Of a stretch of DNA of 64,000 bases, positions 17,979 through 41,857 are shown piece by piece (position 1 is the stretch's first letter; each line of letters begins with the position of its first letter). The stretch is from Candidatus Zixiibacteriota bacterium. GTDB taxonomy: Bacteria; RBG-13-66-14; B26-G2; WVWN01. The notes below the pieces were generated by a model. The model was not told the origin of the DNA and searched no databases. It saw only the letters and a list, made by a program, of their open reading frames with translations. The stretch covers positions 124,949 to 188,948 of the forward strand of contig JASFLY010000003.1 in the NCBI GenBank assembly GCA_050117845.1, read 5' to 3'. Both the position numbers and the translations under genes were made by a program.

Positions 17979-20900
17979 CTATTCTATCGGGAATTTTTCC
18001 TCCGGACTTATACCGTACTTTTTCATTTTGTACCTTAAGTTCGTTTCGGAAATCTCCAATTTACGGGCCGCGGCCGCTTTCACCCACCTCGCCTCCTCGA
18101 GCGCCTCGAGAATCATCTCGCGCTCCAGGTTGGCCAGAGACTCGTTCAGCGAGGAACTGCTCGTGCTACGGCCCGGCCTTCCCATTTTCCTCAGGTTAAC
18201 CGGGAGGGCATCGGGCTCGATAACGCGGCTCGACGTGGCCGTAAGGGCGTACCGTACGCAGTTTTCCAGTTCCCGCACGTTTCCGGGCCATTCGTACGCC
18301 GTCATTATCGCTACGGCCTCCGGTGAGAACCGGGGCCTGTCTTTCGCCTTCCCCTGGTAATATGTGGTCACGAAATGATTCAGGAGTTCCGGAATGTCCT
18401 CCCGGTGTTCCCGTAAAGGCGGACAACCGATAAGGAAGACGTTCAGACGGTAGAACAAGTCTTCCCGGAACTTGCCGCTGGCGATGGCCTCCGGCAAGTC
18501 GGCGTTGGTCGCGCTTACGACGCGGGCCTTCAACGGGATGGTTTGATGCGTGCGACTGCCGAGCCGGACGAACCTTTTCTCCTGGAGGACGCGGAGCAGC
18601 TTGGACTGGGTATTCATATCCATGGCCGCGACCTCATCCAGGAAGATAGTCCCGTCGCCGGCGCGTTCGAAGAGGCCGATCCTCTTGTCGACGCCGGTCG
18701 CCGTCCCCTTTTCGATCCCGAACAACTCGCTCTCCAGAAGCGCCTCCGGGATGGCCGCGCAGTTCACGCCGATGAACGGCGCGTCCGCGTTAGGGCTGAG
18801 CGTGTGGACCGTTCGGACGACGAGTTCCTTGCCGGTGCCCGACTCCCCGACGACGAGAACGTCGACGTTGGCCTGGGCCGCCGAAGCGACGGCGCCCCGC
18901 AATTCCTCCATGACCTGAGACGAACCGACGAGCAGGGGTTTGGCCGCTTCCTCCCGCGGCGCGATGCTTATGGTGGCGAAACTCTCCTCCGAGCGGCGAC
19001 GGCGCCGTTCGATTTCGTAGGCCGCGGCGCGCGCGAAGACCTGGGCGAAATTCAGGTCCTCCTCCGCGAAAAGGCTCTCGCGCTGAAGGCTGTCGAGGTA
19101 GACGACGCCCTGGAAGGCCCCGTCCCCCCCGGCGAGGGGGATACATATCAACGAACGGATTCCGTGGAGCTGGACGCTGGCGCTGTCCTTGAAACGGAAG
19201 TCCTCGGCGGCGTTGGGGCTGAACACGGCCTTCTTGGATTCGGCGACGTGGCCGATAATCGTCTTGCTTATAACGGACGCATCCTCGATGGTGGAGTCGT
19301 CGACGCCGGCGGTTCCCTTAATCCGCAGGACGTTGTTGTGCTCGTCCAGGAGGAAAATCACGCCGCGGTCGGCCTCCAGCCTTTCGGCCAGATACGACAG
19401 TATAAACTTCAGAAGATCGTCGAGGTCGGGCTGGTCGGACAGTTCCTTCAACCCGTCGGCCAGTTCCGCGAGTTTCTTCTCGCCTTCGTCGCTGTTGCGT
19501 TCCGCCATAAACAAGTTCCCTTCCAACTCGAATATTTTTACGCGGTACTTATTCACGCCAATCTCGCCGAATAGAGTCTTGGCCTTTTCGAGGTCGTTCC
19601 GCGCCTGCCTTATTATATCAACGTCTCCGGCCCCGCGTAAAGCCTTTAACTTCAATTCGGCTCGCGCCATGTAGCAGCGCCCGAGGAAATACTTGCTGCT
19701 CAGCGCCGTAAAAGTGGAGAGTGCCTGGTCGAGGTACGCTTCCCCGAGGTCGGCGTCGCCTCGTGCTCCCGAGAGCTCCCCCCGGGTAAGCAAAACCTTC
19801 GCGTGTTCCAATTTGTCCCCGGAGTCTTCCAGGTTCTTAAGACAGCGCGCCAATTCCTCCTCGGCCTCTTCGTAACGGCCGGCCAGGAATAGCACCCGGC
19901 CACGGAGGGAACGGGTATCGTCGACCTCCGTCCGGGCCCCTCGCTCCGTGAACGACTCCTCCGAACGTTTCAGGTGTTCCAACGCCTCGTCTAGTTCGCC
20001 GTTCTCGGCCGCGATTAGCGCCCGATAATAACTAGCGTACCCGGGGATCGCCCCGGCCAGGGACTCCTCGGCGTCCAACTCGTCCAGGTAGAACTCGGCC
20101 CGGCGGTACTCTCCGGCGCGTATCATGTTCGCCGCGGACCCGACGTAAATCGACGCCAGGAGTTCCGGATTGTCGATAAGTTTGCACTCCGCCTCGGCGG
20201 CCTCGAATTCCCGGGCGGCCCGTTTCACGTATCCCTGGTTGTGATATATCCGGGCCAGCCGGATGAGGGACGCGACCAGGGCGTAGCGGTCGTGGGCCCT
20301 CTTGGCCAGCTCGATGCTGCGCCGGGTCGCGTCTTCGGCCCGTTCCACGTCCGCCCTCCACAGCAGAACCTCGCCGGTCAGATTCAACGCGATGGAAGCC
20401 AGCCGGGGCTTGCCGGCCTCCTCGGCCAGTCGGGCCGTTTCGGCGAACGCGGCCAACGCGGCGTCGGCGTCGCCGGCGTAATAGGATATCGCGCCCTTGA
20501 CGTAATTCACGTACGCCACGAGGTCGGGACGGTCCACCGCCGCGGCCAATGCCTCCGCGTCTCGCGCCAGCGTTATCGCCCGGTCGAAATCCCGGTTGCG
20601 GAAGTAGGTCCAGGCCAGCAAGGCCTGTCGCAGAAACCTATCCCCCGCTTCCAACTCGTCGGGCGGGAGACCGTCCAGGTCCCGGGCCGGCGCTTCGAAG
20701 TCACCCAACACCAAACGTTCCCGCGAGAGTTGCAGCAGCGCTTTTCCGTAGCCGACCTGGCCGGGCTTCCGGCACCGCACCAGGGCGTCGTAGTAGCCGA
20801 GGGCCGAGGCGTGGTCCCCCATGGCGGAATAAGCCTCCGCCAAATCGGTGACCGCGTCCTCGTACGCCTCGCTGTACCAGTTGCCCTCGGTCGTCAGAGC

Positions 20901-22958
20901 CGCCTCCAGGAGTTCGACCGCGCGTTCGAAATCGTTCGTCCGGGCGGCGGCCCGGCCCGCCTCGAGGAGAGGGCCCCGGGCCTTGCGGCTCGACCCCATG
21001 CGGAGGTAGGCCCGGCCCTTCGCCTCCAGCGAATCGACGTCGCGGACGCCGTTTCGGTCCAGGAAGGCCACGACGCCGGCCGAGGCTTCCTCCAGATACT
21101 CCTCCCGAGCCCACTCCAGAACGTACTCCCTCACGGCGGCGTTCGCGAAGGAATACCCGGCGTCAGGCGTCTCCTCCTTGCTAATGACGCCCGCCTCCAC
21201 CAACCGGCCCAAGACGCCCCCGTCCTTAACCAACTCGCCCGGGAAATAATAGCCGTACGCCGCGGCCAGCGCCAGCGATTCCTTCTCGTTCTCCCCCAGG
21301 CGCTCGATAACGCCGACCAGATAGTCGTCCGGCGCCGGGCAGACGGTCGCGGTTTTCAGGCTGCCGTAATCGACGTGCCACCCGTCCAATCGGCGTATAA
21401 CCGTCTTCTCCGCGATAAGATGTTCTATAGTGCGGCGGAGGACGCCGGGGTTCCCTCGCGCCAGCCGCTTGACGTGGCGGGATAAAGCCGGGTCCACCTT
21501 GGGCACGCCGAGGGCGTATTCCAGATAACGCTCCGTCGTTTCTTCCGAGAAACCCTTTAATTCGAACTTCTTTACCGTTAACAACCCTTGCGGGCCGGCC
21601 AGGATTTTTTTCGTAAAGGCGCCGCCGGGCCGAGCGAGCGCGATTACGAACTTCACCCGGCCCCGGAACGGATAGTTCACGAGGCGCGTTACCGATTTCG
21701 CCGTTCCTCCGTCCTCCGCGTCGACGTTGTCGAGAGCCAGGACGGTCACGTCGTACTTCCCCGACGAGTCGTTCAGACTGCGGAGGACGTCGGCCTCGCC
21801 GGCGACGTCGTACGCCGGGGCCCCCATCAGGGCGGCCTCCAGCGAGCGCGAAATGCCGGTACCGTCGTAAGCCTCCGGGAAAGCGGCGCGGACGCGGACA
21901 CCGAGAACGCGACGCAACGCCCGTAATACGCCCTCGCCGGCGCCGCAGTCGACGTATAAAAAGGAACCCCGCTTTAACTGAGCGACCCGGCCTACTTCGC
22001 GCAAAAACGCCGTCTTCCCGACGCCCGCCGAACCCTCCACGATGAAGACCTCCGGCCCCTGATTATCGCCGGAAGGACGGAAAACGTCCGTCACCTCTTT
22101 CTCGTAACCGAAGAAACGGCCGGTCGCGAGGTCCGTTTCTATGCGCATCGTTTCGGGAAGAGGGATATCCTGAGCCCGGGCGAGTTCGGCCAGTTTCGTT
22201 ATGGCTTCGTACGCGGACGCGAACCGGTCCGCCGGATTGTGCTGGACCAACCGCGACGCGAAAACGTCCAATTCCGGGTAAACGTCCGGGGCGACCTCGC
22301 GCAAGCGTACGTAGTCGTACCTCGGCTTACGTTTGACCCGGGATATATCGTCGCCGGGCATGAACGGCAAGCGGCTTGTGATAACCCGGAAGAACAGGAT
22401 GCCGAACGAGTAAAGGTCGGACCGGGGATCGTCCATGACCCCCTGGAAGACCTCCGGCGCTATGTACTCCATGGTACCGGAGACGGGATAGCGGTCCTCA
22501 CCCTCGACCTGGCGGACAAGGCCGAAATCCCCCAGGATGAAGCGGCGCCGATCTTCAGCTTTGGCCTCGAAAACGTTACCCGGTTTCACGTCGCCGTGGA
22601 TTATGCCGCGCCGGTGGACGTAGTCGAGGGCGGACAATAGCTGCAGGGAGAAGTCGAAGAGGTATGGGAGGTTAATGTCCGGGCCGGCCTGGTCGAAGCG
22701 CCACCCGGCGTAATAATCCATCGTATAATAAATGAAATCCTGTTCTTCGCCGAAATCGTAAACGCGTACGATATTGGGATGGTCGAGGTACGTGAGGGTT
22801 TCGAACTCCCGTCTGAGAAGCTCGATGGGCCTTGCCCGGGATTTATCGACGGTTTTAATGGCGACGACCTTTTCCCGGCTACGGTCGAAGGCTTTTACCA
22901 CTTCCGACGTAGGAGTGCGGGCAATTTGTTCTATTATGTCGAACCTGTCGTCGAGCAT
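17979..22958 (-). CDS. multidomain regulator: Ser/Thr protein kinase-like + STAND/NACHT-type P-loop ATPase + TPR + GAF + sigma-54 interaction AAA+ domain + Fis-type HTH
   Basis: Kinase motifs VAIK, HGDVKPGN, DFG, APE (Gly-rich loop absent); Walker A VEGSAGVGKT; long TPR-like helical region; GAF (RGVIFLLD...GVVYLDS); EBP domain VLVVGESGTGKE, ESELFG, GAFTGA-variant GTATGV, C-terminal HTH. Confidence 0.85.
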   Translation of the reverse strand: MLDDRFDIIEQIARTPTSEVVKAFDRSREKVVAIKTVDKSRARPIELLRREFETLTYLDHPNIVRVYDFGEEQDFIYYTMDYYAGWRFDQAGPDINLPYLFDFSLQLLSALDYVHRRGIIHGDVKPGNVFEAKAEDRRRFILGDFGLVRQVEGEDRYPVSGTMEYIAPEVFQGVMDDPRSDLYSFGILFFRVITSRLPFMPGDDISRVKRKPRYDYVRLREVAPDVYPELDVFASRLVQHNPADRFASAYEAITKLAELARAQDIPLPETMRIETDLATGRFFGYEKEVTDVFRPSGDNQGPEVFIVEGSAGVGKTAFLREVGRVAQLKRGSFLYVDCGAGEGVLRALRRVLGVRVRAAFPEAYDGTGISRSLEAALMGAPAYDVAGEADVLRSLNDSSGKYDVTVLALDNVDAEDGGTAKSVTRLVNYPFRGRVKFVIALARPGGAFTKKILAGPQGLLTVKKFELKGFSEETTERYLEYALGVPKVDPALSRHVKRLARGNPGVLRRTIEHLIAEKTVIRRLDGWHVDYGSLKTATVCPAPDDYLVGVIERLGENEKESLALAAAYGYYFPGELVKDGGVLGRLVEAGVISKEETPDAGYSFANAAVREYVLEWAREEYLEEASAGVVAFLDRNGVRDVDSLEAKGRAYLRMGSSRKARGPLLEAGRAAARTNDFERAVELLEAALTTEGNWYSEAYEDAVTDLAEAYSAMGDHASALGYYDALVRCRKPGQVGYGKALLQLSRERLVLGDFEAPARDLDGLPPDELEAGDRFLRQALLAWTYFRNRDFDRAITLARDAEALAAAVDRPDLVAYVNYVKGAISYYAGDADAALAAFAETARLAEEAGKPRLASIALNLTGEVLLWRADVERAEDATRRSIELAKRAHDRYALVASLIRLARIYHNQGYVKRAAREFEAAEAECKLIDNPELLASIYVGSAANMIRAGEYRRAEFYLDELDAEESLAGAIPGYASYYRALIAAENGELDEALEHLKRSEESFTERGARTEVDDTRSLRGRVLFLAGRYEEAEEELARCLKNLEDSGDKLEHAKVLLTRGELSGARGDADLGEAYLDQALSTFTALSSKYFLGRCYMARAELKLKALRGAGDVDIIRQARNDLEKAKTLFGEIGVNKYRVKIFELEGNLFMAERNSDEGEKKLAELADGLKELSDQPDLDDLLKFILSYLAERLEADRGVIFLLDEHNNVLRIKGTAGVDDSTIEDASVISKTIIGHVAESKKAVFSPNAAEDFRFKDSASVQLHGIRSLICIPLAGGDGAFQGVVYLDSLQRESLFAEEDLNFAQVFARAAAYEIERRRRRSEESFATISIAPREEAAKPLLVGSSQVMEELRGAVASAAQANVDVLVVGESGTGKELVVRTVHTLSPNADAPFIGVNCAAIPEALLESELFGIEKGTATGVDKRIGLFERAGDGTIFLDEVAAMDMNTQSKLLRVLQEKRFVRLGSRTHQTIPLKARVVSATNADLPEAIASGKFREDLFYRLNVFLIGCPPLREHREDIPELLNHFVTTYYQGKAKDRPRFSPEAVAIMTAYEWPGNVRELENCVRYALTATSSRVIEPDALPVNLRKMGRPGRSTSSSSLNESLANLEREMILEALEEARWVKAAAARKLEISETNLRYKMKKYGISPEEKFPIE

Positions 22959-23836
22959 GGATTCCCGGTATCACAGGGTTAAGTTAACTTCGCCTGGCGT
23001 TCGGGTTATCTTACGATATTATTTTCCACTTTAATAATATATAATTTTACATAGCGCCGTCAAGGTTTTTACGCTCGTAAGCTTGGCAATAGAACGCTTT
23101 TATCTTCCGGCACTTACGACACGCGGCAGCGCCGCGGGCTCCCGATCCCGGCCTAACTCGCCGGGGCCTTCGTGAGCCGCAACCGAGGCGTTCCCATCGA
23201 AAGCTCCTCTTAGTTCAAACCGTATCATCAATACTCCTACCCTAATATATACGCGAATTCGGACCATCCGTTGCCGGAGCGCCGGAACGGATATTACGTA
23301 ATCCCCCGTTGCCTATTATAATCATTCCCGGCGTAGGCCGTAAGTGCTTAATTATCAATAGCATAGCTAGTATCGACGACAAGGGCTCCCGGGGCTAAAA
23401 TGGCCGCCGCCGCGCCAAGGTGTCACTGGACTTAATAAAAAGGCCGAGAAGCGCCGCCGATCCGGAATCTACCCGCCGCAACGCTGAACCGCTCTAACCG
23501 GATTCGCGGCAATCGCCTTTTCCCAACAGACTGTAACCTTACTTTATTGAAAATCGTCAAGTCATCGAACGCGGCGGCCTTCGTCGGAAATATAATGAAA
23601 ACTGGTATAAGAACTGAGTATTTTTATAACGGCCCTATGTCATAAATTGACATACTAGTAATATAATTATTGTACGAGAATTGGACGAGCCATAACTCTT
23701 TATGCTATAATAAATAATGGACAATTAAGTCGGCGAGGTATGACAAGATAAAACTTAGGTTAATCCTTTTTTGTAATGATGGGTTATACCCATAGGGAGG
23801 CTTGGTCTAACCGACTAAGTTAAAAGGACGGTATCT

Positions 23837-24829
23837 ATGTCCGTAAAGCGTGCGGAACGGCTCTTTCATATGATAAGTATATTAAGGACGGGACGGGGAT
23901 ATACCGGGGCCGAGTTGGCCGACGTCATGGGCGTTTCCCAACGGACGGTTTACCGAGACGTCGTCGACCTGTCGGGACTGGTGCCCATATATTACGACGA
24001 CGGGTACCGGCTCCTGTCCGATACTTTCCTGGCCAACCTCACTTTCACGCGCGAAGAATTGGTGGCCCTCAAGCTGGGCGTACAGATGCAGGCGCTGGCC
24101 GAAGCCTCTCACCTCGGCGCCGCGACCCAATCCGTCCTCGCGAAAATCGACGAACAGCTGGAACGCCGGTTCCAGGGCGAGGCGGACGACGGCGACGTAA
24201 TATCGGTCCACGTGAAGGCTCACCCGATGGGAGAGAAGACGGTGCGGGTCCTACGAGACCTGGAGGACGCGGTACGGCGCCGCCTGACCGTCGAATTCTC
24301 CTATTACACGCTCAGCCGAAACGAGAAGACCAAACGGACGGTCGACCCGTACGGCCTGACGTTCCGACGCCATAGCTGGTACCTGGTGGGCTATTGCCAC
24401 CTTCGCCACCAGGCGCGCGTATTCCGTCTCGATCGGATCTCCTCCGTTGCGGCCACGTCACACAAATTCGAACGGCCCAAGGACTTTTCGCTGGAAGAGT
24501 TCTTCGCCGATACCTGGGAGGTATTCGCCTCCGGCCCTCTGGCCGACGTCGCGTTGCGCTTTTCCCGGCACGCGGAATTCATCGCCCGGCCCACGCTGGG
24601 AGGCCGCGGCGAGTTCAACCTTGAACGAAAAAGCAATAAAATAGTATTTCGCGGAGAAGTCCCTGTAACGGACGAATTCGTACGTTGGCTTCTGACGCTT
24701 GGAGAGAACGTCGAGGTCCTCGAGCCGGCCGAACTCCGCGACAGGGTAGCTTCCCGCCATCGCTCCGCAGCCGAACTCTACGAGCCTATCGTCGCGGAGG
24801 CGGGTTCGCGAGGGATAAACACCGGGTAG
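23837..24829 (+). CDS. WYL-domain transcriptional regulator (HTH + WYL)
   Basis: AAAAGGACGG RBS; N-terminal HTH (YTGAELADVMGVSQRTVYRDV); WYL signature HSWYLVGYCHLRHQARVFRLDRI. Confidence 0.8.
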   Translation: MSVKRAERLFHMISILRTGRGYTGAELADVMGVSQRTVYRDVVDLSGLVPIYYDDGYRLLSDTFLANLTFTREELVALKLGVQMQALAEASHLGAATQSVLAKIDEQLERRFQGEADDGDVISVHVKAHPMGEKTVRVLRDLEDAVRRRLTVEFSYYTLSRNEKTKRTVDPYGLTFRRHSWYLVGYCHLRHQARVFRLDRISSVAATSHKFERPKDFSLEEFFADTWEVFASGPLADVALRFSRHAEFIARPTLGGRGEFNLERKSNKIVFRGEVPVTDEFVRWLLTLGENVEVLEPAELRDRVASRHRSAAELYEPIVAEAGSRGINTG

Positions 24830-24945
24830 GAGGCCGCTTCCCCGTCCCCGGGACGGGGCTGTTTAAGCAGGCGCGCCGCACTTTTCGGGGGATTATCGTC
24901 CGAATGCTCGAGCGACACGGGTACGTCGTAAAAAATAAGGCGGGC

Positions 24946-24966
24946 AACGAGCGCGCCTCGTTTTAC
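24946..24966 (+). terminator. weak terminator-like hairpin downstream of WYL gene
   Basis: AACGAG-CGCGC-CTCGTT followed by TTTTA; short stem. Confidence 0.3.
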
Positions 24967-25185
24967 GTTATCGATATTGTCCGTTTCCCTTCCGTTTTCC
25001 AAACCCTTACTAACGTCAAAGGCTTGTCCGAAGCCGTTACCAGGGCCGCCCCGTCGGCGTTCCACCGTACGACCGGGCGGACCGTATTGTAGCGCCGTTC
25101 CCCGAAAGCGGAACGGGCCGGCGAATAGGGCGGACGTAAGTCGCGCCCGACAATTTAAGATAGAAATTTGACAAGCGTAATGGGG

Positions 25186-25212
25186 GCCCGGGGATTACGG
25201 TCCGGGCTTTTT
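25186..25212 (+). promoter_or_regulatory. terminator/attenuator-like hairpin in the 5' leader of the RT-sensor gene
   Basis: GCCCGG-N10-CCGGGC + TTTTT ending 3 nt before the GAGGAGG RBS (25216-25222) and ATG 25231; a third CCCGGG at 25224-25229 allows alternative pairing over the RBS; TTGACA hexamer at 25168-25173. Confidence 0.4.
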
Positions 25213-25230
25213 CCCGAGGAGGTCCCGGGA

Positions 25231-28200
25231 ATGGACTTTTGTTCGGCGGACGACCTGGCGGCGGCGTGGCCCTACGCCCGTCGGGATGCCGCGGACAATT
25301 TCGTCTTCGACGTTATCGATTATGAAGACGTCAAACATAACCTGCCGCATATAATCCGGCGGCTCGAGCGCGAACTCCGGACGGACCAGTATAAACCGGC
25401 CCCCCTTCTGTCCGTCGATATACCGAAAAGGCCCTACACCATCCGCCCGGGCGCAGTCGTCTCTTTAATCGATTTAATCGTACTTTACGCCCTGGTCAGG
25501 AAAATAGCGCCGGCCCTCGACGCGAAATTATCGCCCGGCGTATTCTCCTACCGTTGGGTCCCCGAGGGAAAAAAGCCCAAGTGGTCCATCTTCTCGGAAT
25601 CGACCCAGGACGAATGCGGCATCGACGAAATCCTCCCCGCCGCGCCGTTCGCTCCGTACCCTCCTTTCGACGAGGCCGCGCCGGCGGGATGGTTCCGGGG
25701 GTGGATAGAATATCACGAGCGCGCGAAAGATTCCGCCGCCCGCTATAATTATTGCGCCGTCGGCGACGTTACAGCCTATTTCGAAAACGTCGCCGTGACG
25801 TCGCTCTTCAACCGTATAGGGGACCTCCTCGGCCCGGAGCACTCGGAAGCCCTCACCCGCCTCCGCCGCTTCTACGAGTATTGGGCCTGGCATCCAGCCG
25901 GTACGACCACGCGCGGCGAAGTCCTCCCCCAGGGCAACGATATATCGCTCTTCCTCTCGAATTTCTATCTGACGAAACTCGACGAGGCCATGGCGGCCGA
26001 AGTCCAGAACGACCCCCGCCGGTACTTTCGCTACGTCGACGACATCTGCGTCTTCACCGATACCCAGGAGCAGGCCCACCACTCCCTCCTCACCGGCGAC
26101 CGGGTGCTGCGCGATCTGGGGCTGAACCTTAATACGGAGAAGACCGGGATCGTTCCCACATCCCGCCTCTTCGACCGGGACGTGGAGCGCTGGCTCGAGG
26201 ACATGTCGCCCGTTACGGCCAACGCCGCCGAGAACGCCCGTGACTTCTTTAAGAACCGCTTCGACGCCGACGACGTCGAGAAGTGGGAACGCGCTTACCT
26301 GCGGGCCTTAACGACTCTCCAAAGAGCCGGCGACTGTTCGGTCGCCCCCGCCGCCCTTCAGGTTTTCCTGGAGAACCCCACGTACAAACTGCTGGTTAAA
26401 AATTTCGATTACCTTAGCTTCTTCGCGGAGCGTTTCCGATTCGGCGACGACGTCGCCCGCCGGATCACCGAGGGAACGTTCAACTTTCCATTCCACAAAC
26501 ACTACCTTTACCGCCTGGCTGCTTACTGCCGGCAGAACTCCCCTTCTCTCCGCGAGCAAGCTCTGGAAGAAGCCCGCGGCGACGCCGAATGGTACGTCCG
26601 AATCGCCGCGTTATACTGCCTGAACACGTTCAACCTTTCGCCCGACGAACTCGACGCCGTCGAGGAACTGGCGGGCAGCGAGGCCCACCCGCAAGTGGCC
26701 CGCGCCGCGCTCGTCGTTTTGCGACAACGGCCGGCCGACGAGGTCGCCTCGGCCGAGGATCATTTCCTCTTTACCACCGCGCCCGGCCAGGAGAACCTAC
26801 GCGAATATTTCTTCCGCCTCACGACCGAAGAGGAATTGGCGCGTGCCGTCCTCGAGCGGATCCGGAACCAGGAGGTGGCCTCGCGCGCTTTCCTGAACCG
26901 CCTCCACCAACTGGACCTCCTCAAGGGCAATCCCGCCGTCCGCGAGGAATACGGCCGGATCCTCGAACAAAAGATAGACGAATGCGACCCGGCCTGGACC
27001 CGCCTCTATAGCCGCCTCCGGCGCATCGCCGAACTGGCGTCGGTAAGTGCGTTGCGCGTTCGAAAAGCGCGCAAAATCGCCCGGGCGCAAGGCCACCTTC
27101 AAACCCTGCTGCGAAGCTCGCGCGAGGCCGTCCTTATAACCGGCCCGGGAGGAGACGTCCAGGTCTGGAACGACGCCGTGAACAAACTCCTCGGTTACGG
27201 CCGCCGCGAGGTCCGCGGGAAAGACGTGACCGACATCTTGCCTTCCCCCGGCGGCTTCGCGTCCGCGGACGAACTCACGGCATACGTCGCCGAGAACGGC
27301 GGATGGCTCGTCGAGGAGGCAACCCTTTACGAGCGGCCGGACGGCGCGCTGATTGACATTTCCACCACCTATTCCGTTATCACGGATCCCATTACGGGCG
27401 AGCCGGTCGGCCTCCTTATCCTTGTACGCGACGCGACCGCCGAAGTACGGGCCGCCCGCATCGAACAGGTACAAATCGCCACCGAACAAACCCTGGCCGA
27501 CGCCACGGTCCGGCTTGTCTCGCCGGAAGACCTGGACGCCGCCATTGAGCACACCCTGCGAGAGACGGCGGACGTGCTGAACGCGCAACGGGCCACCGTT
27601 TTCCGTTTCAGGGAAGGAACACTCGTCCTCGATGTAACCCACGAATGGTGCGCGCCCGGCGTCCCTTCGACCCGCGACTCCGGAGGAAAACTGGACCTCG
27701 GCGAACTCCCGGACGTCCGCGAGCGCTTGCATTCCGAGCGCGTCCTTTCGATATCGAACCTCTCCACTCCCAGCGCCGGGAGTCAACGGGTGATGAAGGA
27801 ACGGGGTGTCAAAGCGGCCCTCGTCGTCCCGTTCTATATTTCCGACGAGATGACCGGCCTAATAGCGTGCACCGATACGACCCGGCCTCGCGACTGGGCG
27901 TACGGCGAGGCCAATCTCCTCTTCGCCGTAACGGCGCTTATCTCGAAAGCTCTGGCGCGCCGGGAAGCGGAGGAGGAAAAGCTGGTGAGCGAGGTCCGCT
28001 ACCGGGCCGTCGTCGAAGACCAAACGGAGCTGATATGCAGATGGCGGCCCGACGGGACCCTTACCTTCGTTAACGAGGCTTACGGCCGGTATTTCGGGAA
28101 ATCGCCCGGCGAACTGGTGGGCCGGAGTTTCATCCATTTTATCTCGGAGGAGGATCGCGAAACCGTCGAGGCCGAATTCGCGTCTCTGGGTCCGGACAAA

Positions 28201-31200
28201 CCATCCTCGACGCATGAACATCGCGTTACGACGCCGGCCGGTGAAGTCCGTTGGCAGCAATGGACCAACCGCGTCATCATTGACGAGCACGGCGCAATAT
28301 CGGAATACCAATCCGTAGGCCGCGACATTACGGAGCGCAAACTCGCCGAGGAAGCCCTCGACTTCGAGCGCCGCCAACTCTTGTCGATCTACGATAGCGT
28401 CGAGGAAGTCGTTTACGTCGCCGACCCCCGGACCCACGAAATCATATACGCCAACGAGTACTTGAAATCGCTGTACGGAAAAGACATGGTAGGCGGCGTA
28501 TGTTACCGGGAATTCCAGGGGCTGGAGGCCCCCTGCGATTTCTGCACGAACGGAATAATACTCGAACAAAAAGGCAAGGCGTACCGTTGGGAATTCCACA
28601 ACGAAATACTAGACAAGTCCTTCCTGTGCACCGACCGGATAATTAAATGGCCCGACGGCCGGGACGCCCGGATCGAAATCGCCATAGACATCAGCGACCG
28701 CAAAACCGCCGAAGAAGCTCTGCGGAAGAGCGAAGAGGAATTCCGCGCGCTCGCGGAGCAGTCCCTCCAGGGAGTTACCCTCGCGACGGAGGATCGGACC
28801 ATCTTCGCTAATCGGGCTTTTTACAACATCACCGGCTACGAGCCGGACGAGATAATCGGCCTGACGCCGGGCGAAGTCGCCACCCTAATCATCCGGCCGG
28901 AGGACAGGGAAACCGTTAAAAAGAACTTCCGGCGCCGCATGGACGGAGAAAGCGCTCCTTCGCCGTACGCCGTGGGAATACTCCATAAGAACGGCTCCAC
29001 CCGGTGGGCCGAGTTATACTGCACGATCGTCGATATCGGAGGGCCGCCGGCGAATCTTACCACGCTCGTCGACATAACCGAACGGAAGCGGGCCGAGGAA
29101 GCGATCAGGGAAAGCGAGGTCAAGTACCGAACGTTGTTCGAGAACTCGCCGGACGCTCTTACGATACTCGACACCCGCGCGGTCATTAGCGACCTGAACC
29201 GGGCGACCGAAGAACTAACGGGGTACTCGCGGGAAGAGCTACTGGGGCGGCCCTTCGTAGAAATCCCGTCACTACGGGCCCAAAAACGGGCCCGCCTGCG
29301 GAAACTGCATTCCGACCTCGTCGCGGGCCGTGAGGCCGAACCGTACGAATTGGAAATCGTACGACGGGACGGGACCCGTCGATGGGTAAACGTTACGGTC
29401 GCCGCAATTAAAAAAGGGTCGGACCTTATAGGAACGCAGCTGATAGGCCGCGACGTTACCGAACGCAAACTCGCCGAAGAGAAGATAAAACGCCGTTTGG
29501 AATTTGAGGGCGTAGTCGCCCGCATCTCGTCGCGCCTCGTGGCTCCGGCGGACGTCGACCGGGCCGTAAACGAATCGTTGGCCGATATAGGCCGGTTCCT
29601 CGGAGCCGGCCGAGTACCACTATTCCTATTGAGCCGGGACGGCAGCGAGATGTCCATCAGCCACGAGTGGTGCGCCGCCGGCGTAAAAAGCCTGATCGGA
29701 GAGCTGCAAGGGGAGCCCACGTCGGGAATCCCGTGGTGGACGGACCGACTCGGCGGGGGGGAAGTGCTGCACATACCGGACGTATCGCGAATGCCGCCGG
29801 AAGCCGCCCCGGAACAGAAAATCCTGGAGGGACAGGGGATTAAATCCATCCTCGTATTGCCCGTCGAGATCGGCGGGAGTTTCAGCGGCTTCGTCGCGTT
29901 AGACAACGTCGAGGGAACCGGCGGCTGGGACGTGGACGACGTGGAACTCCTCCGCGTTATGGCCGCGGACCTCGGCCGGGCCTTCGAACGACAACGAGCG
30001 GAAAGCATCCTCCGGGAAAACGAGGAACGTTACCGCGACCTGGTGGAAGGTTCCCATGATCTCGTCCAAAGCGTCGCCCCCGACGCCCGCTTCCTATTCG
30101 TCAACCGGGCCTGGCTCAGGACGATGGGCTACGCCGAAAGCGAACTTCCGAACCTCACCCTTTTCGACGTTATTCATCCGGACTACGTCGGGCACTGCCA
30201 GGAATTGTTCCAGCATGTTATGCGCGGCGAAACCGTTAGCGATATCTCGGTCAAGTTCGTGACGAAGGACGGCCGCGAAATCATCCTCGACGGCACGGCG
30301 GGGCCGCGTTTCATGAACGGCGAAGTCGTGAGCACGCAGGGTTTCTTCCACGACGTAACCGAGCGTAAACGCGCCGAAGAAAAACTCAAGCGCCATAGCG
30401 AAGAAATAGCCGCCGTCAGCGAACTGGCCATAGAACTCGCCGGCGTCGATACGAGTGAAGAGATGTTCCCCCTTATCGCCCGCCGCCTCCGGGAGCTTAC
30501 CGGCGCTTTGGCCGTCCTGACGACGTCTTACGACTACGAGGCCGATGAATTGGCCGTCAACGCCGTCGAAGCCGACGTTAGCACCCTGGACAAAACGAAC
30601 GATATCCTGGGCGCGGAGCTTTCGACGATACGCTTCCCGTTTCCGATATATTCCCGCGAAGCCCTGGCTTCCGAACACGTCGCCGTAACGACGGGCATCC
30701 CCCACCAGGCCCACGCCGTCATTCCGAAAAACGCGTGCCGAGTAATCGAGGAAGCCTTCGGCATCGGCGACGTTTACATTTTAACGTTCCACTTCGGCGG
30801 GGACATGATCGGCGCTGCCGGCATTATTATGCAGCGAGAGACTACCCGGCCTTCCGTCGATACGCTGGAGGCCGCGGCCAACACGATCGCCACCACCCTC
30901 CGGTCCAAACTCGCGGAGGAAGCCCTGGTCGCCAGCGAGCGCGAGAAGACGACCATACTCGAATGCGTGGACGATATGGTCGTTTTCTGTAATTCGGAAA
31001 TGGAAACGGTCTGGGCCAATCCCGCCGCGGCCGCGTGGCACGACATGACGCCCGAAGAAATGGTAGGCCGCCGTTGCTACGAAGAACGCTACGGCCGGAC
31101 CGATCCCTGCGAGGACTGCGCGGAAGTCGAAGCGCTGAGAACCGGCGAACCCCGGGAAATCGAAACCACGTCCCCCGACGGCCGGTCATGGTACAACCGA

Positions 31201-34200
31201 AGCATACCCGTCACCGACGATTCGGGCGCCGTCGTCGGCGTCGTAACCACCACGCAGGAAGTAACGGCTCGTTACCACGCCAGGGAAACGTTAAAACAAC
31301 GGGCGACGAACCTGGCCGCGATAAACGACCTGGCCGTCGAGCTGGCGTCGGCTCCCTCCGCCGACGCGATCCGCCGGATAGCCGGCGACCGGTTGAGAAC
31401 GTTGGGCGGCGCCCTGGCCGCGATAGTCACGAGTTACGACGAAGAGGCCGGAGTTTTCGTCGTCCGCCATATTTCCGCCCCCGGCGACGTTTTCACCAAA
31501 GCCAATAAAATCCTGAACGGCACCGTTTACGACATTCGTTGTCCCGTTGACGACGACGCGTACGAAGAGATCCTGGCCCGCCGGGTTAAACCATACGAAG
31601 GCGTTTACGATCTGGCGTTGGGCGCCATTCCACGAAAATTGGCGACCGCCATCGAAAAAGCCCTCGGCCTCGGCGAAATAATCGCCGCCGGGTTCCGGCA
31701 CGGGGGACGCGTACTAGGCGGAATCTCCGTCGTCATGCCGGAAGGGCGCCCCGCGCCGGACGCCGAAATACTCGAAAACTTCGCCAACGTCGTATCGTCG
31801 GCGCTCGTCCGGCAGGCCGCCGACGAATGGCTCGTAAAAAGCGAACGGGAGAAATCGGCGATACTGGCGAACATGACCGGCCTCGTCGCCTACATGAAAC
31901 CGAACCTCGAAATCGTGTGGGCGAACGATGCCGCGGCCGACTGGGCGGGCCTCACGCCGCGAGAGATGGCCGGCCGGTACTGCTACGACGTCTGGTACGG
32001 ACGGACTAAACCCTGTAAGCGTTGTCACGTCGTACGCACGGTGGAAAGCGGCGAGGCCCAAACGTTCGAGACCGATTTCAGAGACGGCAGCGTCTGGCAC
32101 GTCCAATGCAATCCGGTACGTAACGCCGCCGGAGAAGTCGTGGGCATCGTCGAAACCTCTACGGACATCTCCGCCCGGAAACGGGCCGAAGAAAGCCGCC
32201 GCGAAACGGAAGCGCGGTACCGCGCGCTCGTCGATACCATGAATGATGGATTCATCGCGCACGACGAGCGGGGCGTAATCACGTACGTCAACGACCGTTT
32301 GTGCGAAATACTCGGCTTCCCGCGCGAGAATATCGAAGGCCGGCCGATGGACGACTTCCTCGATCGGGAAAACGCGGCAACCCTGCGGGAACGACGCCGC
32401 CTTAAAAAACCGCGGGCGGAAGCGTACGAACTTTGTTGGACAGGCGAAGGCGGCCGACGCGTATACACCGTAGTCTCGCCGGGAACCCTACCGAAGACCG
32501 AAGGCCGGTCCGCCGGCGGTTACGCCACGATTGCCGACATTACCGTCCGTAAACGAGCGGAAGAAAACCTCCAACGTCGAAGCGACGATATCGTAGCGGC
32601 CAACGGCCTTATCCTCGAACTCGCCGCGGCCCGCACGCCCGCGGAGGCCGCAGAGATACTTTGCGAAGGGTTGAAACGTCTCACCGAAGCACTCGCTATC
32701 GCCCTTTTGAAATACGACGTTAATACGCGCGAACTGGTTATCGAATACGTAGCCGCGGAAAACGACGTCAAATCCGAATCCGGGAAAATACTGGGGGGCG
32801 AACTGTCCTCGCTCCGCTTCCCGTTGGACCGAGCCGGGGCCGACGAACTCGTAAACCGCCGCGTCGCGGCAACGAAGGGTCTCCCCCGCAACGTTTACGG
32901 CGGTGTTCCGCGAAAGGACGTCCGCGCCTTCGAAGAAGCCCTGGGCTTGGGTGAAGTCTACGTCCTACCGCTCCAGCACCGGGAAGGACTGATGGGGACG
33001 GTCGCCATAGTGACCCGGGACGAAAACCCGCCCCTCTGGCCCGGAGCGGTTGAGGCCGTTGTCGCCGCCGCGGCGGCAGTACACGAACGCGTCGAAGCCG
33101 CCGAAAAACTCCGCGCGAGCGAGGAAACGGCGCAGGTCCTGCTGAACGCGCCCGCTAATTCGGCGTTCCTTCTCGACGCCGAAGGTACGATCCTCGCTTT
33201 CAACGAAACGACGCGATGCCGAACCCGCCTCGGCGCCGAAGATTTGCGAAGCGCGTCGTTGTGGGAAATCCTCCCGCCCGCGGTCGTCGACGCCCGGAAA
33301 GGCCAACTCGAAGAGGTCGTCCGTACAGGCCGCCCCGTCCATTTCGAAGAGAAGCGACCAGGCTCGGCCTTCGAAAGCTACTTCCACCCGATACGAGGGC
33401 CGCACGGCGTTACCAACGTCGCCCTATTTTCATGGCCCGTAACTCTCCGAAAAGAAATCGAAGAGAAACTGGCCGAGCCGAAAAAGGACTTCCGGCCCGC
33501 AGCCGAGGCTTCGCCGGTCGCGGCGTTGGTGCTAAACCACAGCGGGGGAATCTCCTGGGTTAACAAGGCCGCGCTAAGCCTATTCGGCTACGCCAAGAAA
33601 GGCCAAATGAAACGACTGCCGCTCCGGGAACTCTTCCACGCCGAGGACGAAAAAGAGATGGAGCGGGTAATGGACCTCGCGGCCGGTAGCGCTACGACGT
33701 ACGCCGGATTTACGGCTCTTACCGTCAACGGCGAAAGGCGGCCGACCGTCGCCCGGGCGGCGCCCGTATTCGAGGACGGTAAACGCCGGGGGGTACGGGT
33801 ACTCGTGGACGACGTAAGCGAACGCGTACGTACCGCGGAGGCCCTGGCCGCCGGCGTCGACCCGACGGAACTGCTGTCGACGCTAACGAGTTCTTACGCC
33901 GTTGTCGCGGACGGCAAGGGAGCCGTAACGGCCGTGAATACGAATACCGAAACGCGGCTCTGCAAACCGGCGGACGACGTTATCGGCACGCATTTCGAAT
34001 TTACCGTTCCGCGTGGGACGGAGGAGTCCAGGAAGCAGGCCTTCGAAGAAACGCTACGTTCGGGGAAAGCCGTGCTATTCGAGGACGAAACCACCGCCGC
34101 GACGTACGAGAACGACCTCTACCCCATACTAGACGGCGAGGGTAACGTCTCCCGCGTAGCGTTCTTCAGTCGCGACGTAACCGGGTCAAAAGCGACCGCC

Positions 34201-34656
34201 GAGGCCCTCAGCGCGACCGAAGCGAAGACCCGCCTCCTAGCCAACCAAATACCGGCGATTATTTGGACGACCGACGACGAACTCCGGATAACGTCCCTGC
34301 ACGGCGGCGGCCTGGCGTTTATCGAGACGCCGCCCGCGGAACTCCGGGGTAAAACGCTACCCGAGCTCTATGGCACCAACGAGGTCACGTCCACGGTCAT
34401 TGCGGCCCACCGGCAAGCGCTCCGGGGCGAAGTGGCGACTTACGACCAGGAAATCGGCTCTCGGACATTCCAGGCTACGGTGGAGCCGTGTAGGGACGGA
34501 GAGGGCCGCGTAGTCGGATGCGTCGGCGCGGCCCTCAACGGCCTGACGCTTTACGGCAAAATAAACGGTCCCGCCCGGACCGGCGGCGATCCCGGCGAGA
34601 AGTCAACGTCGCCGGAGTACCCGCCTCGACCCAAGCCGAGCTCGACGGGGTCCTAA
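25231..34656 (+). CDS. giant (~3141 aa) reverse transcriptase - PAS/GAF sensor-array fusion protein
   Basis: Start taken at ATG 25231 (GAGGAGG RBS 8 nt upstream) rather than TTG 25168; RT motifs in canonical order: NYCAVGDVTAYFENV, LPQGNDISLFLSNFYL, YFRYVDDICVF (YVDD at 26032-26043); then helical domain, then >=10 PAS units with DITERK(R/L)AEE-type linkers and ~5 GAF-like units; no kinase/GGDEF/EAL/HD/DNA-binding output. Confidence 0.85.
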   Translation: MDFCSADDLAAAWPYARRDAADNFVFDVIDYEDVKHNLPHIIRRLERELRTDQYKPAPLLSVDIPKRPYTIRPGAVVSLIDLIVLYALVRKIAPALDAKLSPGVFSYRWVPEGKKPKWSIFSESTQDECGIDEILPAAPFAPYPPFDEAAPAGWFRGWIEYHERAKDSAARYNYCAVGDVTAYFENVAVTSLFNRIGDLLGPEHSEALTRLRRFYEYWAWHPAGTTTRGEVLPQGNDISLFLSNFYLTKLDEAMAAEVQNDPRRYFRYVDDICVFTDTQEQAHHSLLTGDRVLRDLGLNLNTEKTGIVPTSRLFDRDVERWLEDMSPVTANAAENARDFFKNRFDADDVEKWERAYLRALTTLQRAGDCSVAPAALQVFLENPTYKLLVKNFDYLSFFAERFRFGDDVARRITEGTFNFPFHKHYLYRLAAYCRQNSPSLREQALEEARGDAEWYVRIAALYCLNTFNLSPDELDAVEELAGSEAHPQVARAALVVLRQRPADEVASAEDHFLFTTAPGQENLREYFFRLTTEEELARAVLERIRNQEVASRAFLNRLHQLDLLKGNPAVREEYGRILEQKIDECDPAWTRLYSRLRRIAELASVSALRVRKARKIARAQGHLQTLLRSSREAVLITGPGGDVQVWNDAVNKLLGYGRREVRGKDVTDILPSPGGFASADELTAYVAENGGWLVEEATLYERPDGALIDISTTYSVITDPITGEPVGLLILVRDATAEVRAARIEQVQIATEQTLADATVRLVSPEDLDAAIEHTLRETADVLNAQRATVFRFREGTLVLDVTHEWCAPGVPSTRDSGGKLDLGELPDVRERLHSERVLSISNLSTPSAGSQRVMKERGVKAALVVPFYISDEMTGLIACTDTTRPRDWAYGEANLLFAVTALISKALARREAEEEKLVSEVRYRAVVEDQTELICRWRPDGTLTFVNEAYGRYFGKSPGELVGRSFIHFISEEDRETVEAEFASLGPDKPSSTHEHRVTTPAGEVRWQQWTNRVIIDEHGAISEYQSVGRDITERKLAEEALDFERRQLLSIYDSVEEVVYVADPRTHEIIYANEYLKSLYGKDMVGGVCYREFQGLEAPCDFCTNGIILEQKGKAYRWEFHNEILDKSFLCTDRIIKWPDGRDARIEIAIDISDRKTAEEALRKSEEEFRALAEQSLQGVTLATEDRTIFANRAFYNITGYEPDEIIGLTPGEVATLIIRPEDRETVKKNFRRRMDGESAPSPYAVGILHKNGSTRWAELYCTIVDIGGPPANLTTLVDITERKRAEEAIRESEVKYRTLFENSPDALTILDTRAVISDLNRATEELTGYSREELLGRPFVEIPSLRAQKRARLRKLHSDLVAGREAEPYELEIVRRDGTRRWVNVTVAAIKKGSDLIGTQLIGRDVTERKLAEEKIKRRLEFEGVVARISSRLVAPADVDRAVNESLADIGRFLGAGRVPLFLLSRDGSEMSISHEWCAAGVKSLIGELQGEPTSGIPWWTDRLGGGEVLHIPDVSRMPPEAAPEQKILEGQGIKSILVLPVEIGGSFSGFVALDNVEGTGGWDVDDVELLRVMAADLGRAFERQRAESILRENEERYRDLVEGSHDLVQSVAPDARFLFVNRAWLRTMGYAESELPNLTLFDVIHPDYVGHCQELFQHVMRGETVSDISVKFVTKDGREIILDGTAGPRFMNGEVVSTQGFFHDVTERKRAEEKLKRHSEEIAAVSELAIELAGVDTSEEMFPLIARRLRELTGALAVLTTSYDYEADELAVNAVEADVSTLDKTNDILGAELSTIRFPFPIYSREALASEHVAVTTGIPHQAHAVIPKNACRVIEEAFGIGDVYILTFHFGGDMIGAAGIIMQRETTRPSVDTLEAAANTIATTLRSKLAEEALVASEREKTTILECVDDMVVFCNSEMETVWANPAAAAWHDMTPEEMVGRRCYEERYGRTDPCEDCAEVEALRTGEPREIETTSPDGRSWYNRSIPVTDDSGAVVGVVTTTQEVTARYHARETLKQRATNLAAINDLAVELASAPSADAIRRIAGDRLRTLGGALAAIVTSYDEEAGVFVVRHISAPGDVFTKANKILNGTVYDIRCPVDDDAYEEILARRVKPYEGVYDLALGAIPRKLATAIEKALGLGEIIAAGFRHGGRVLGGISVVMPEGRPAPDAEILENFANVVSSALVRQAADEWLVKSEREKSAILANMTGLVAYMKPNLEIVWANDAAADWAGLTPREMAGRYCYDVWYGRTKPCKRCHVVRTVESGEAQTFETDFRDGSVWHVQCNPVRNAAGEVVGIVETSTDISARKRAEESRRETEARYRALVDTMNDGFIAHDERGVITYVNDRLCEILGFPRENIEGRPMDDFLDRENAATLRERRRLKKPRAEAYELCWTGEGGRRVYTVVSPGTLPKTEGRSAGGYATIADITVRKRAEENLQRRSDDIVAANGLILELAAARTPAEAAEILCEGLKRLTEALAIALLKYDVNTRELVIEYVAAENDVKSESGKILGGELSSLRFPLDRAGADELVNRRVAATKGLPRNVYGGVPRKDVRAFEEALGLGEVYVLPLQHREGLMGTVAIVTRDENPPLWPGAVEAVVAAAAAVHERVEAAEKLRASEETAQVLLNAPANSAFLLDAEGTILAFNETTRCRTRLGAEDLRSASLWEILPPAVVDARKGQLEEVVRTGRPVHFEEKRPGSAFESYFHPIRGPHGVTNVALFSWPVTLRKEIEEKLAEPKKDFRPAAEASPVAALVLNHSGGISWVNKAALSLFGYAKKGQMKRLPLRELFHAEDEKEMERVMDLAAGSATTYAGFTALTVNGERRPTVARAAPVFEDGKRRGVRVLVDDVSERVRTAEALAAGVDPTELLSTLTSSYAVVADGKGAVTAVNTNTETRLCKPADDVIGTHFEFTVPRGTEESRKQAFEETLRSGKAVLFEDETTAATYENDLYPILDGEGNVSRVAFFSRDVTGSKATAEALSATEAKTRLLANQIPAIIWTTDDELRITSLHGGGLAFIETPPAELRGKTLPELYGTNEVTSTVIAAHRQALRGEVATYDQEIGSRTFQATVEPCRDGEGRVVGCVGAALNGLTLYGKINGPARTGGDPGEKSTSPEYPPRPKPSSTGS

Positions 34657-34719: not shown

Positions 34720-35985
34720 TCACGCGACCGGTGCGGCCGTACGAATACGTTCCTCTGTTGCGTCCGCGGTCAGGCCCTCGGCCGGGTCCGCCGTCGGCAG
34801 CAATCCGCCTTTCGTCGAAGCCAATACGTCGTAGTAGAGTTCCCGGATATCGCGGCCCAGGCGCTCGAGCGTAAAACGCCTCTCGTACGTCTCCCGGCCG
34901 AGCGCCCCCATCGACGCGGCCAGCGACGCGTCGTCAAGCGTGTGAGCCAGCGCCGCCGCCACTTCGCCGGCCGACCCGACGTCGGTTAAAAAGCCCTCGC
35001 GGCCGTCTTCCATGATTTCCGCGACGCCGCCCGCCCGCGCGGCCACGACCGGGACGCCGCGGGCCATAGCCTCCACTACGACGCGGCCGAAGGGCTCGGC
35101 CTTCACCGGCGTATGGACCAGGACGTCGAACGCCTCCATGGCCCGGGCCGCGCCGTCCAGTTGCCCCGGGAAACGGACCCGCGCTCCCAAACCCGCGCGA
35201 CGGACCCGGTCCAGGAGTTCCGCCCGGTACGAGTGGGCGCCGTAGAGCGGGCTCCCGATAACGACGAAATAAACGTCCGGGAAATCGGCCGCGAGGCGAG
35301 CCGCGGCGTCCAGGAAAACGTGTTGGCCCTTCCACGGCGCGAGTTGCCCCACGCAGCCCACGATTCGGGCGTCCGCCGGTATGGCCCACTCCTCCCGCCA
35401 CCGATCCCCGTCCCGGCGAGGATACGCCGGCGGACGGGCCACGGCGTTATACACGACGGCCACGCGCCGTCGCGCGCGACGGAACTGCCCGGCTACGGTC
35501 CGGGATATCGCGACGACGCGCTCGGCGCTTATAGCCGCCAAGAGGTCCATGATCCCCCGGGCGAAGCGACCCGGGAGAACGTCCCGCATGTGCCACACCA
35601 GCGGGACGTCCGAGGCCACCGCGGCGAGGGCCGCGAAGACGTGAGCTTTCTGGCTGTGAGTATGGATCAGGTGCGGCGAGGCCGCGTCTATAACGCGACG
35701 GAGACTACGGGCCGTCCCGAACGCCCGGAATACCTGGCGCCACCAGCTTACGGAAAGCGGAGAGATATCCTCGCGGTGAAAGGTTAACAGGGACGCGTCC
35801 GCCCGGTAATAGTAGATACGTTCGCCCCGCTCGGCCAGAGCCCGGGCCAACGGCCCCGGCCCCGGCACCGCGAACGATATTTCATAACGCTTGCGGTCGA
35901 AAGTCCCGGCCAACTCCATCATGCTCCGTTCGCCGCCGCCTACCGTAGTGGCGTGGTCGACGAATAACAACCGCGTCCTAACCAT
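34720..35985 (-). CDS. glycosyltransferase family 4 (GT-B)
   Basis: EPFGRVVVEAMARGVPVVAARAGG matches the GT4 E-x-FG...EAMA-x-G-x-PVV motif. Confidence 0.8.
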   Translation of the reverse strand: MVRTRLLFVDHATTVGGGERSMMELAGTFDRKRYEISFAVPGPGPLARALAERGERIYYYRADASLLTFHREDISPLSVSWWRQVFRAFGTARSLRRVIDAASPHLIHTHSQKAHVFAALAAVASDVPLVWHMRDVLPGRFARGIMDLLAAISAERVVAISRTVAGQFRRARRRVAVVYNAVARPPAYPRRDGDRWREEWAIPADARIVGCVGQLAPWKGQHVFLDAAARLAADFPDVYFVVIGSPLYGAHSYRAELLDRVRRAGLGARVRFPGQLDGAARAMEAFDVLVHTPVKAEPFGRVVVEAMARGVPVVAARAGGVAEIMEDGREGFLTDVGSAGEVAAALAHTLDDASLAASMGALGRETYERRFTLERLGRDIRELYYDVLASTKGGLLPTADPAEGLTADATEERIRTAAPVA

Positions 35986-35991
35986 ATCGGC

Positions 35992-39020: not shown

Positions 39021-39093
39021 ATAATATCCCTAACGTCTTCCTGAGAACGCAAATAGCTTCCGTTTTTCTTCCCGACGGTAACAGGCCGGTATG

Positions 39094-41732: not shown

Positions 41733-41857
41733 TTTCGCCGGATTACCCTTTCTTCAAAACGATGCTGCTAATTCGCTCGATATCGTTTTATACGGGGCGC
41801 CTTGCCGTAGCGCATTAACGTGTTCACCAACCGAGTTCGCGTCCACGGCCCGCTCAA

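Follow-up and report, generated by a model that had tools for sequence, protein, structure and literature searches.

Which signal is sensed, and which gene is controlled, by a WYL-family regulator encoded directly upstream of a giant reverse transcriptase (RT) fused to sensor domains? This question is raised by a stretch of 64,000 nucleotides from a Candidatus Zixiibacteriota bacterium (contig JASFLY010000003.1, positions 124,949-188,948), the whole of which is referred to below as the window. The WYL gene is located at positions 23837-24829 of the forward strand, runs from ATG to TAG and encodes a protein of 330 amino acid residues. It is followed on the same strand, after a gap of 401 nt, by the RT-PAS gene (25231-34656), which encodes a UG21-type RT, an alpha-repeat domain and then an array of PAS and GAF domains. 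A preliminary description of the locus had noted that the WYL gene lies upstream of the RT gene, and this adjacency proves to be kept in five lineages. The same description proposed a regulator of the defence-linked kind acting on the neighbouring gene. The results presented here probably point elsewhere: the WYL protein would be a single-stranded DNA (ssDNA)-responsive factor of the DriD/DdaA/PafBC/SiwR branch, acting on its own promoter at positions 23636-23654.

Domain architecture and family placement

The WYL protein is a transcription factor consisting of a helix-turn-helix domain of the winged type (wHTH), a three-helix bundle, a WYL domain and a WCX domain. Matches to the Pfam hidden Markov models are found for HTH_11 at residues 8-52 (4.6e-8), for the WYL domain at residues 138-204 (1.2e-24; 86.5 bits, the cutoff being 21.8) and for the WCX domain at residues 237-312 (4.8e-13). 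The general WYL model of PADLOC also matches the 330-residue protein, with 1.6e-55. The signature HSWYLVGYC, from which the preliminary description had recognized a WYL ligand-binding regulator, is located at residues 179-187 in the context RRHSWYLVG, and the Pfam search confirms that recognition. The residues Trp181, Tyr182 and Leu183 are kept in all 24 orthologues compared, with valine replacing Leu183 in three of them. An exact-sequence look-up returned no identical record; the homologues at E<=1e-3 number 1736, which indicates that the open reading frame (ORF) is a real, conserved gene.

The same succession of wHTH, three linker helices, WYL sandwich and WCX domain is present in the AlphaFold2 model (pLDDT 86.5). 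Residues 3-59 are predicted to form three helices and a beta-hairpin, as in a winged HTH, and the WYL domain to consist of a helix (residues 133-147) and then five strands of an Sm-like beta-sandwich. A Foldseek search with this model placed DriD first (8tp8; 4e-18, TM 0.59, 24% identity) and PafBC next. In the sequence search of the PDB, covering residues 4-312, PafBC was the best match (3e-24), DriD was aligned over its full length (4e-12), and mycobacterial PafB/PafC were also among the best matches.

The characterized WYL factors include the activators PafBC, DriD and SiwR on the one hand and the repressors CapW and BrxR on the other, the repressors carrying an RWHVR version of the motif (PMC11662680). 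The window's protein has SWYLVG at this place instead of RWHVR. Its sequence match to BrxR is only 4.5e-4, and in Foldseek BrxR and CapW appear at about 1e-10 with TM values near 0.35 and 12-16% identity. The protein is thus unlike CapW and BrxR, the repressors associated with defence, and groups with DriD, DdaA and PafBC; the defence-linked placement proposed earlier is not supported. By sequence, predicted fold, pocket residues and binding motif it is a new member of the ssDNA-activated branch of DriD, DdaA, PafBC and SiwR, where the likeness to DdaA is drawn from its binding motif and description and not from the DdaA protein sequence. Taken alone, the gene codes for one more wHTH-WYL-WCX regulator.

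Ligand pocket and predicted DNA-reading residues

DriD of Caulobacter crescentus is an ssDNA-activated WYL activator, and the roles of its ssDNA-contact and base-reading residues have been described (PMC10853764). These residues were placed on the WYL protein by a HMMER alignment and their conservation was counted in the 24 orthologues. The ssDNA contacts Tyr168, Arg178, Tyr192, Arg204 and Arg207 of DriD correspond to Tyr156, Arg167, Tyr182, Arg194 and Arg197, all of which are conserved. Trp206 corresponds to Phe196, which is also conserved, and Tyr240 corresponds to Phe230, a position occupied by either tyrosine or phenylalanine among the orthologues. The counterpart of Arg189 is Arg177 or Arg178; the former is invariant, and the latter is arginine in 15 of the 24. 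Only the contact Ser172, corresponding to Ser160, is called variable (serine in 14/24). Judged from these residues, the ligand pocket is intact and under selection. Since the contacts of DriD with the ssDNA backbone are kept in the pocket, ssDNA is most likely the ligand of the WYL protein.

Operators of the DriD type are read by two arginines of helix alpha-3, which in DriD are Arg37 and Arg41. Their counterparts in the WYL protein, Arg36 and Arg40, are both invariant in 24/24 orthologues. Glu40 of DriD, which contacts the outer C of its site, corresponds to Tyr39.

Predicted operator and promoter of the WYL gene

The 350 nt 5' of the WYL start codon were aligned for the window and the orthologous loci. 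The conserved block of this alignment reads ATGTCA-N5-TGACAT, with TATAAT or a hexamer like it 8 nt further on. The window has this block as part of a perfect 19-bp palindrome of 7-5-7 form at positions 23636-23654, TATGTCA-TAAAT-TGACATA (TATGTCATAAATTGACATA), whose core TGTC-N7-GACA (23638-23652) has an AT-rich centre. The palindrome is the sole match with two or fewer mismatches in the window, and its core is the sole perfect TGTC-N7-GACA match there. Further sites with one mismatch in the relaxed core TGTC-N7-GACA are present at chance level in the window, 11 being observed against 12.2 expected.

Every RT-linked orthologous locus of the five lineages has kept the palindrome 5' of its WYL gene, and each related locus has only this one operator. 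Of the 89 loci that were fetched first, 27 contain the exact 12-base pattern, each a single time and in every case at a distance of 35-217 nt upstream from the start of the WYL gene. By chance about 0.04 exact matches would be expected in the ~0.7 Mb of these loci (an estimate from ~7e5 positions x 4^-12). The carriers form four groups. The members of the window's clade have 65-98% identity to each other, while a second clade (62-90% within) contains paralogues only 28-35% identical to the window's clade. Locus L084 is 55-64% identical to the second clade, and L045 and L065 are 42-44% identical to it and have a one-mismatch variant rather than the exact pattern.

A probable -10 hexamer, TATAAT, can be read from the sequence at positions 23662-23667 of the forward strand, 8 nt 3' of the palindrome. 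The -35 sequence at 17-nt spacing is poor (GTCATA, 3/6). In every clade a -10-like hexamer is found 8-11 nt past the palindrome, as TATAAT, cGTAAT, aGTAAT, TATACT or TAGAAT. If TATAAT is taken as the -10 element, the palindrome spans approximately -38 to -20, these positions being derived from the consensus only. An alternative sigma-70-like promoter on the forward strand, TGGACG-18-TGcTATAAT at 23682-23711 (10/12 in the consensus scan), is present in the window only and is not conserved in the orthologous upstream alignment.

The conservation and position of the palindrome support well the prediction that it is very probably the WYL protein's own operator. Its location within the region 22959-23836 makes it very probable that the protein binds local DNA. 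Such binding had been anticipated earlier for this region and also for the leader of the RT gene (24830-25230); the first part is sustained by the palindrome, while the leader contains no site.

Comparison with the characterized activators

DriD binds the motif CGxC-N7-GxCG with an AT-rich gap, a copy of which is found in the driD promoter, and its sites are positioned over a missing -35 element. The window's protein resembles DriD, its best structural match and one that aligns with it full-length in sequence, in the wHTH-three-helix-bundle-WYL-WCX architecture and in both base-reading arginines and nearly all ssDNA contacts. The two sites also share the GxC-N7-GxC core, the AT-rich centre and the location in the regulator's own promoter; if TATAAT is the -10 element, the site of the window would likewise be positioned over a missing -35. 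The differences are the low identity of about 24%, the NYL sequence of DriD in place of the canonical WYL found here, and the outer base of the half-site, which is T here and C in DriD, with Tyr39 in the place of Glu40. In addition, no targets of the didA, recA or bapE type are visible in the window, and the neighbours are the RT-PAS gene and sigma-54 activator genes.

DdaA of Acinetobacter/Moraxellaceae is a WYL factor that activates DNA-damage genes as well as anti-phage genes, and its box is CGWCA-N5-TGWCG. This box differs from TGTCA-N5-TGACA of the window only in the outermost base of each half-site. However, the DdaA motif is located about 50 bp upstream of the transcription starts, while the site in the window abuts the -10 hexamer. 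SiwR of Actinobacteria uses a 19-bp palindrome between the -10 and -35 elements, depends on the -26 region and senses ssDNA through conserved arginines of the WYL domain. The palindrome of the window has the same length and, if TATAAT is the -10 element, would have the same placement, but SiwR controls adjacent DinB/YfiT-like genes. PafBC, the best sequence match in the PDB, occurs as a heterodimer or as a fusion in which one HTH is sequestered, and its -26 element is not palindromic; here a single-copy gene and a perfect palindrome are found. The sequence TGTCA-N5-TGACA is common to WYL factors down to 28% identity and is close to the DdaA and DriD boxes, which extends this recognition code to an uncultured lineage.

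Proposed mode of action

Dimers that bind a palindromic operator of about 20 bp are characteristic of the wHTH-WYL-WCX (YafY/PafBC) superfamily, and the WYL protein is presumably homodimeric. The recognition helices of the two subunits, with Arg36 and Arg40, would contact the G and the C in both half-sites of TATGTCA-N5-TGACATA. Since TATAAT has no usable -35 and the operator lies at about -38 to -20, the protein most likely substitutes for recognition of the -35 element, so that occupation of the WYL pocket would activate its own gene. The autoregulation is most likely positive, and autorepression is the less likely alternative. The sole direct local target in the window would be the transcription unit that begins with the WYL gene. 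Read-through past a weak hairpin, described below, would be the only way to reach the RT-PAS gene 401 nt downstream.

Several points weigh against this proposal. A palindrome overlapping a promoter is also expected of an autorepressor. The distance between palindrome and hexamer varies from 8 to 11 nt by lineage, and the geometry is read from the consensus alone. DNA-damage genes carrying the motif are not visible in the 64-kb window. Deeper orthologues with 55-60% identity, which are located in PilZ-WYL-DPBB_1 operons, have no palindrome. Finally, other WYL ligands are possible, as a WYL factor binding cyclic diguanylate (c-di-GMP) has been published (PMC11880434).

Gene order in related loci

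The position of the WYL gene next to the RT-PAS gene could be no more than inherited gene order. It is possible, though less likely, that the WYL protein is a global DNA-damage activator similar to DriD or DdaA, that its targets are elsewhere, and that the adjacency has no function. The close likeness of the operator to the DdaA box, from which it hardly differs, and the conserved ssDNA pocket are consistent with this. For both DriD and DdaA a site lies in the promoter or regulon of the factor itself, and neighbouring targets are absent. The paralogues of the second, distant clade, which carry the same operator, adjoin genes for a Y-family polymerase (dinB) and GyrI-like proteins. Moreover, the GT4 glycosyltransferase genes downstream of RT-PAS are shared by the RT-linked loci wherever they are visible, which weighs against a meaningful adjacency and would make these loci one syntenic block of one lineage.

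However, the gene order on the two sides of the WYL gene is not equally constant. In five lineages, at 61-70% identity, the WYL gene is found at the 5' edge of a unit consisting of an enhancer-binding protein (EBP) gene, a small peptide ORF and the RT-PAS gene. Upstream of it are located the kinase-EBP gene in the window, NHL-repeat protein genes in L001 and L011 and also in L093, a fervidolysin-like gene in L003 and L004, and a molybdenum-cofactor operon in L008, L010 and L096. With four different upstream contexts and a constant EBP-peptide-RT-PAS side, the WYL gene behaves as the 5' edge of this unit. This argues for more than passive synteny, and some functional link between the WYL and RT proteins is plausible.

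The wiring of the related loci bears on the nature of such a link. In L003, L008, L010 and L096 a strong bidirectional terminator stands after the WYL gene; beyond it come, in this order, a sigma-54 promoter (TGGCAY-N5-TTGCTA), a small ORF for a signal peptide and the RT-PAS gene. In L001 and L011 a gene for a GAF-sigma-54 activator is inserted after the WYL gene, and in L093 the next gene after WYL is of the kinase type and resembles that at 17979-22958 of the window. A strong terminator, a sigma-54 promoter and a small peptide ORF precede RT-PAS in all the relatives, which indicates that its transcription there does not start from the WYL promoter. As read from these elements, sigma-54 together with an enhancer-binding protein drives the RT-PAS gene of the relatives and the WYL promoter is shut off from it. 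This corrects the earlier view of the RT locus. The preliminary description had treated the RT gene as a regulated accessory system; the conserved adjacency agrees with this, but the only operator-like site is on the WYL promoter and the RT-PAS genes of the relatives are sigma-54-driven. There is thus only partial support for the idea that the WYL protein controls the neighbouring RT gene as a defence accessory.

The deeper orthologues in L005, L006/L007, L094 and L095 (55-60% identity) have the arrangement PilZ-WYL-DPBB_1, with no RT. The stop codon of their WYL gene overlaps the start of DPBB_1. This arrangement hints at different wiring, possibly with a link to c-di-GMP.

The RT-PAS gene and its leader

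The N-terminus of RT-PAS matches the UG21 RT among the PADLOC DRT models (1.2e-71), and the LPQGN and YVDD motifs are intact. The start codon ATG at 25231, with GAGGAGG ahead of it, is more plausible than TTG at 25168. The protein has 3141 residues from this ATG and would have 3162 from the upstream TTG; with the ATG start the gap to the WYL gene is the 401 nt of positions 24830-25230. Apart from the RT, the searches showed neither a kinase nor a cyclase nor any other known output domain in RT-PAS.

The leader 24830-25230 on the forward strand contains no WYL operator, no sigma-54 promoter, no match to a sigma-70 promoter and no small-peptide ORF. It shows no nucleotide similarity to the corresponding regions of the relatives. 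A structured non-coding RNA in the leader was considered and dropped, because its predicted fold is not significant (z = -1.19) and no Rfam family was found in the window, in 22800-25400 at E<=1 or in four related loci. The two intergenic regions on either side of the WYL gene have in common only short, chance-like matches (arms containing ATTACG), none of which is conserved in the relatives.

Two hairpins are present in the leader. The first is an 8-bp GC hairpin at 24840-24858 of the forward strand, 11 nt past the WYL stop codon, with the sequence CCCCGTCC-CCG-GGACGGGG followed by CTGTTTAAG. It has no U tract, was not called by the terminator scan and is a weak terminator at best; canonical terminators with long U tracts are found for comparison at 17950-17925 and in the relatives. 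The second, at 25186-25212 of the same strand, resembles a terminator or attenuator better than the first does: GCCCGG-N10-CCGGGC runs into TTTTT, and the element lies 19 nt ahead of the start codon of RT-PAS and just 5' of its ribosome-binding site. It was read from the sequence and is present in the minimum-free-energy fold. The CCCGGG repeats near it allow alternative pairings over the ribosome-binding site, and the element may act as an attenuator. Read-through from the WYL promoter into RT-PAS is possible in the window.

These features should be considered together with the proposal that the WYL protein is a repressor similar to CapW or BrxR, which would hold back the adjacent RT as a defence or accessory gene and release it on infection or DNA damage. 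We regard this as unlikely. CapW and BrxR belong to the same superfamily, have the same domain order, also bind ssDNA and are encoded directly 5' of the system that they control, just as the WYL gene is immediately 5' of the RT gene, on the same strand and in all five lineages. The match of the RT to the DRT models points in the same direction. A gene similar to bGSDM is located nearby, at 14775-15680. Neither a canonical terminator nor another recognizable promoter separates the two genes in the window, so that co-transcription is possible, and there are WYL activators, DdaA among them, under whose control defence systems stand. However, the motif RWHVR is absent, and the similarity to BrxR and CapW in fold and sequence is far weaker than that to DriD and PafBC. 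The leader has no operator, the WYL gene of the window has no promoter or operator in common with the gene downstream, and in the relatives a strong terminator and a sigma-54 promoter lie between the two. The bGSDM-like gene is part of another RT module, which is not linked to the WYL gene in a related genome.

UG21 belongs to the Class 1 UG/Abi RTs and carries an alpha-repeat domain, and its prediction as a defence gene was judged 'inconclusive' (PMC9226505). The RT-PAS gene adjoins a polysaccharide-type cluster and not a defence island. This cluster, convergent with RT-PAS on the reverse strand at 34720-43828, contains two GT4 glycosyltransferase genes, an asparagine synthase gene (AsnB) and a Wzy_C-like gene, and its GT4 genes are syntenic in L001 and L003.

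A third explanation, that the PAS and GAF domains gate the RT, that the RT then makes ssDNA and that the WYL factor converts this ssDNA into transcription, is improbable, since it is wholly conjectural for UG21 and DNA made by protein priming would stay attached to the RT. The same WYL subfamily also occurs with no RT at all, and stand-alone UG21 RTs occur with no WYL gene. A survey of WYL-UG21 linkage in the genome collection gave only two RT loci, and a protein search for UG21 gave only stand-alone RTs, with no WYL gene in the three contexts examined. In favour of this explanation are the intact catalytic motifs of RT-PAS, whose RT is its only output domain, the ssDNA-contact residues kept in the WYL pocket and an adjacency conserved although the genes are not co-transcribed in the relatives. 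Moreover, UG21 belongs to Class 1, and the characterized Class 1 enzymes AbiK, Abi-P2 and AbiA perform template-independent, protein-primed synthesis of ssDNA (PMC9508834 and PMC11077055). If true, it would be a new kind of signal transduction. It would explain both the adjacency in five lineages without co-transcription and a sensor protein of 3141 residues with no output domain except the RT. The presence of a regulator of the ssDNA-sensing type beside a giant RT fused to PAS and GAF domains makes the idea of RT-made DNA as a signal testable.

Other features of the locus

The gene divergent from the WYL gene, at 17979-22958 of the reverse strand, encodes a protein of 1659 residues with Ser/Thr kinase, AAA, TPR and GAF parts and a sigma-54 activator part. 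It is part of a second, separate RT module on the reverse strand, together with a sigma-54 promoter at 17785-17770, a peptide ORF of 50 residues and a second RT. Its stand-alone UG21-like RT (15762-17489, 575 residues; PADLOC RT_UG21, 5.8e-23) is 35-38% identical to the N-terminus of RT-PAS by tblastn and MAFFT. It has FRDK in place of YVDD, no longer has LPQGN and carries deletions of about 43 residues, while the orthologues in L090 and L092 are intact. Judged from these changes, the second RT looks catalytically degenerate. Directly 3' of it is the bGSDM-like gene (reverse strand), which matches the PADLOC bGSDM profile over most of its length (2.8e-13) and the gasdermin structure 7n51 over residues 9-258 (8e-4), with no Pfam match. 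The gene after the RT in L090 was compared as its possible counterpart and is unrelated. In a related assembly the second RT module and the WYL locus are on different contigs, which indicates that this module is not part of the WYL unit.

A conserved cassette is found 5' of the UG21-type RT genes. It consists of a sigma-54 promoter (TGGCAY-N5-TTGC) and a small ORF of 31-57 residues, typically about 50, which encodes a signal peptide with a Pro-rich tail in most loci, for example PPIIPPPQSPPPDG. The cassette precedes the degenerate RT in the window (17583-17785, reverse strand, with a Pro-rich peptide of 50 residues) and RT-PAS in the relatives. It is located at 9628-9845 in L001, 4035-4248 in L003, 8157-8319 in L008, 11625-11789 in L010, 7713-7905 in L090 and 3415-3610 in L092.

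In the relatives a block of about 125 nt is conserved 5' of the WYL gene, at approximately 4730-4870 in L001, 1910-2030 in L003, 6215-6350 in L008 and 5745-5860 in L093; the window lacks it. The start of the block resembles the 5' half of a tRNA (GGCGTAGCGCAGGCCGGCAGCGCG...), and a terminator stands at its end. ARAGORN found no tRNA in it, and it has no Rfam match.

In L054 (5062-9699), and similarly in L036, L052, L027 and L082, a WYL gene of a distant clade, with the identical palindrome 47 nt upstream of its start, is located directly 3' of the gene for a Y-family DNA polymerase. Next to it in these loci come a gene for a protein of 324 residues with no Pfam match and then GyrI-like/Cass2 genes.

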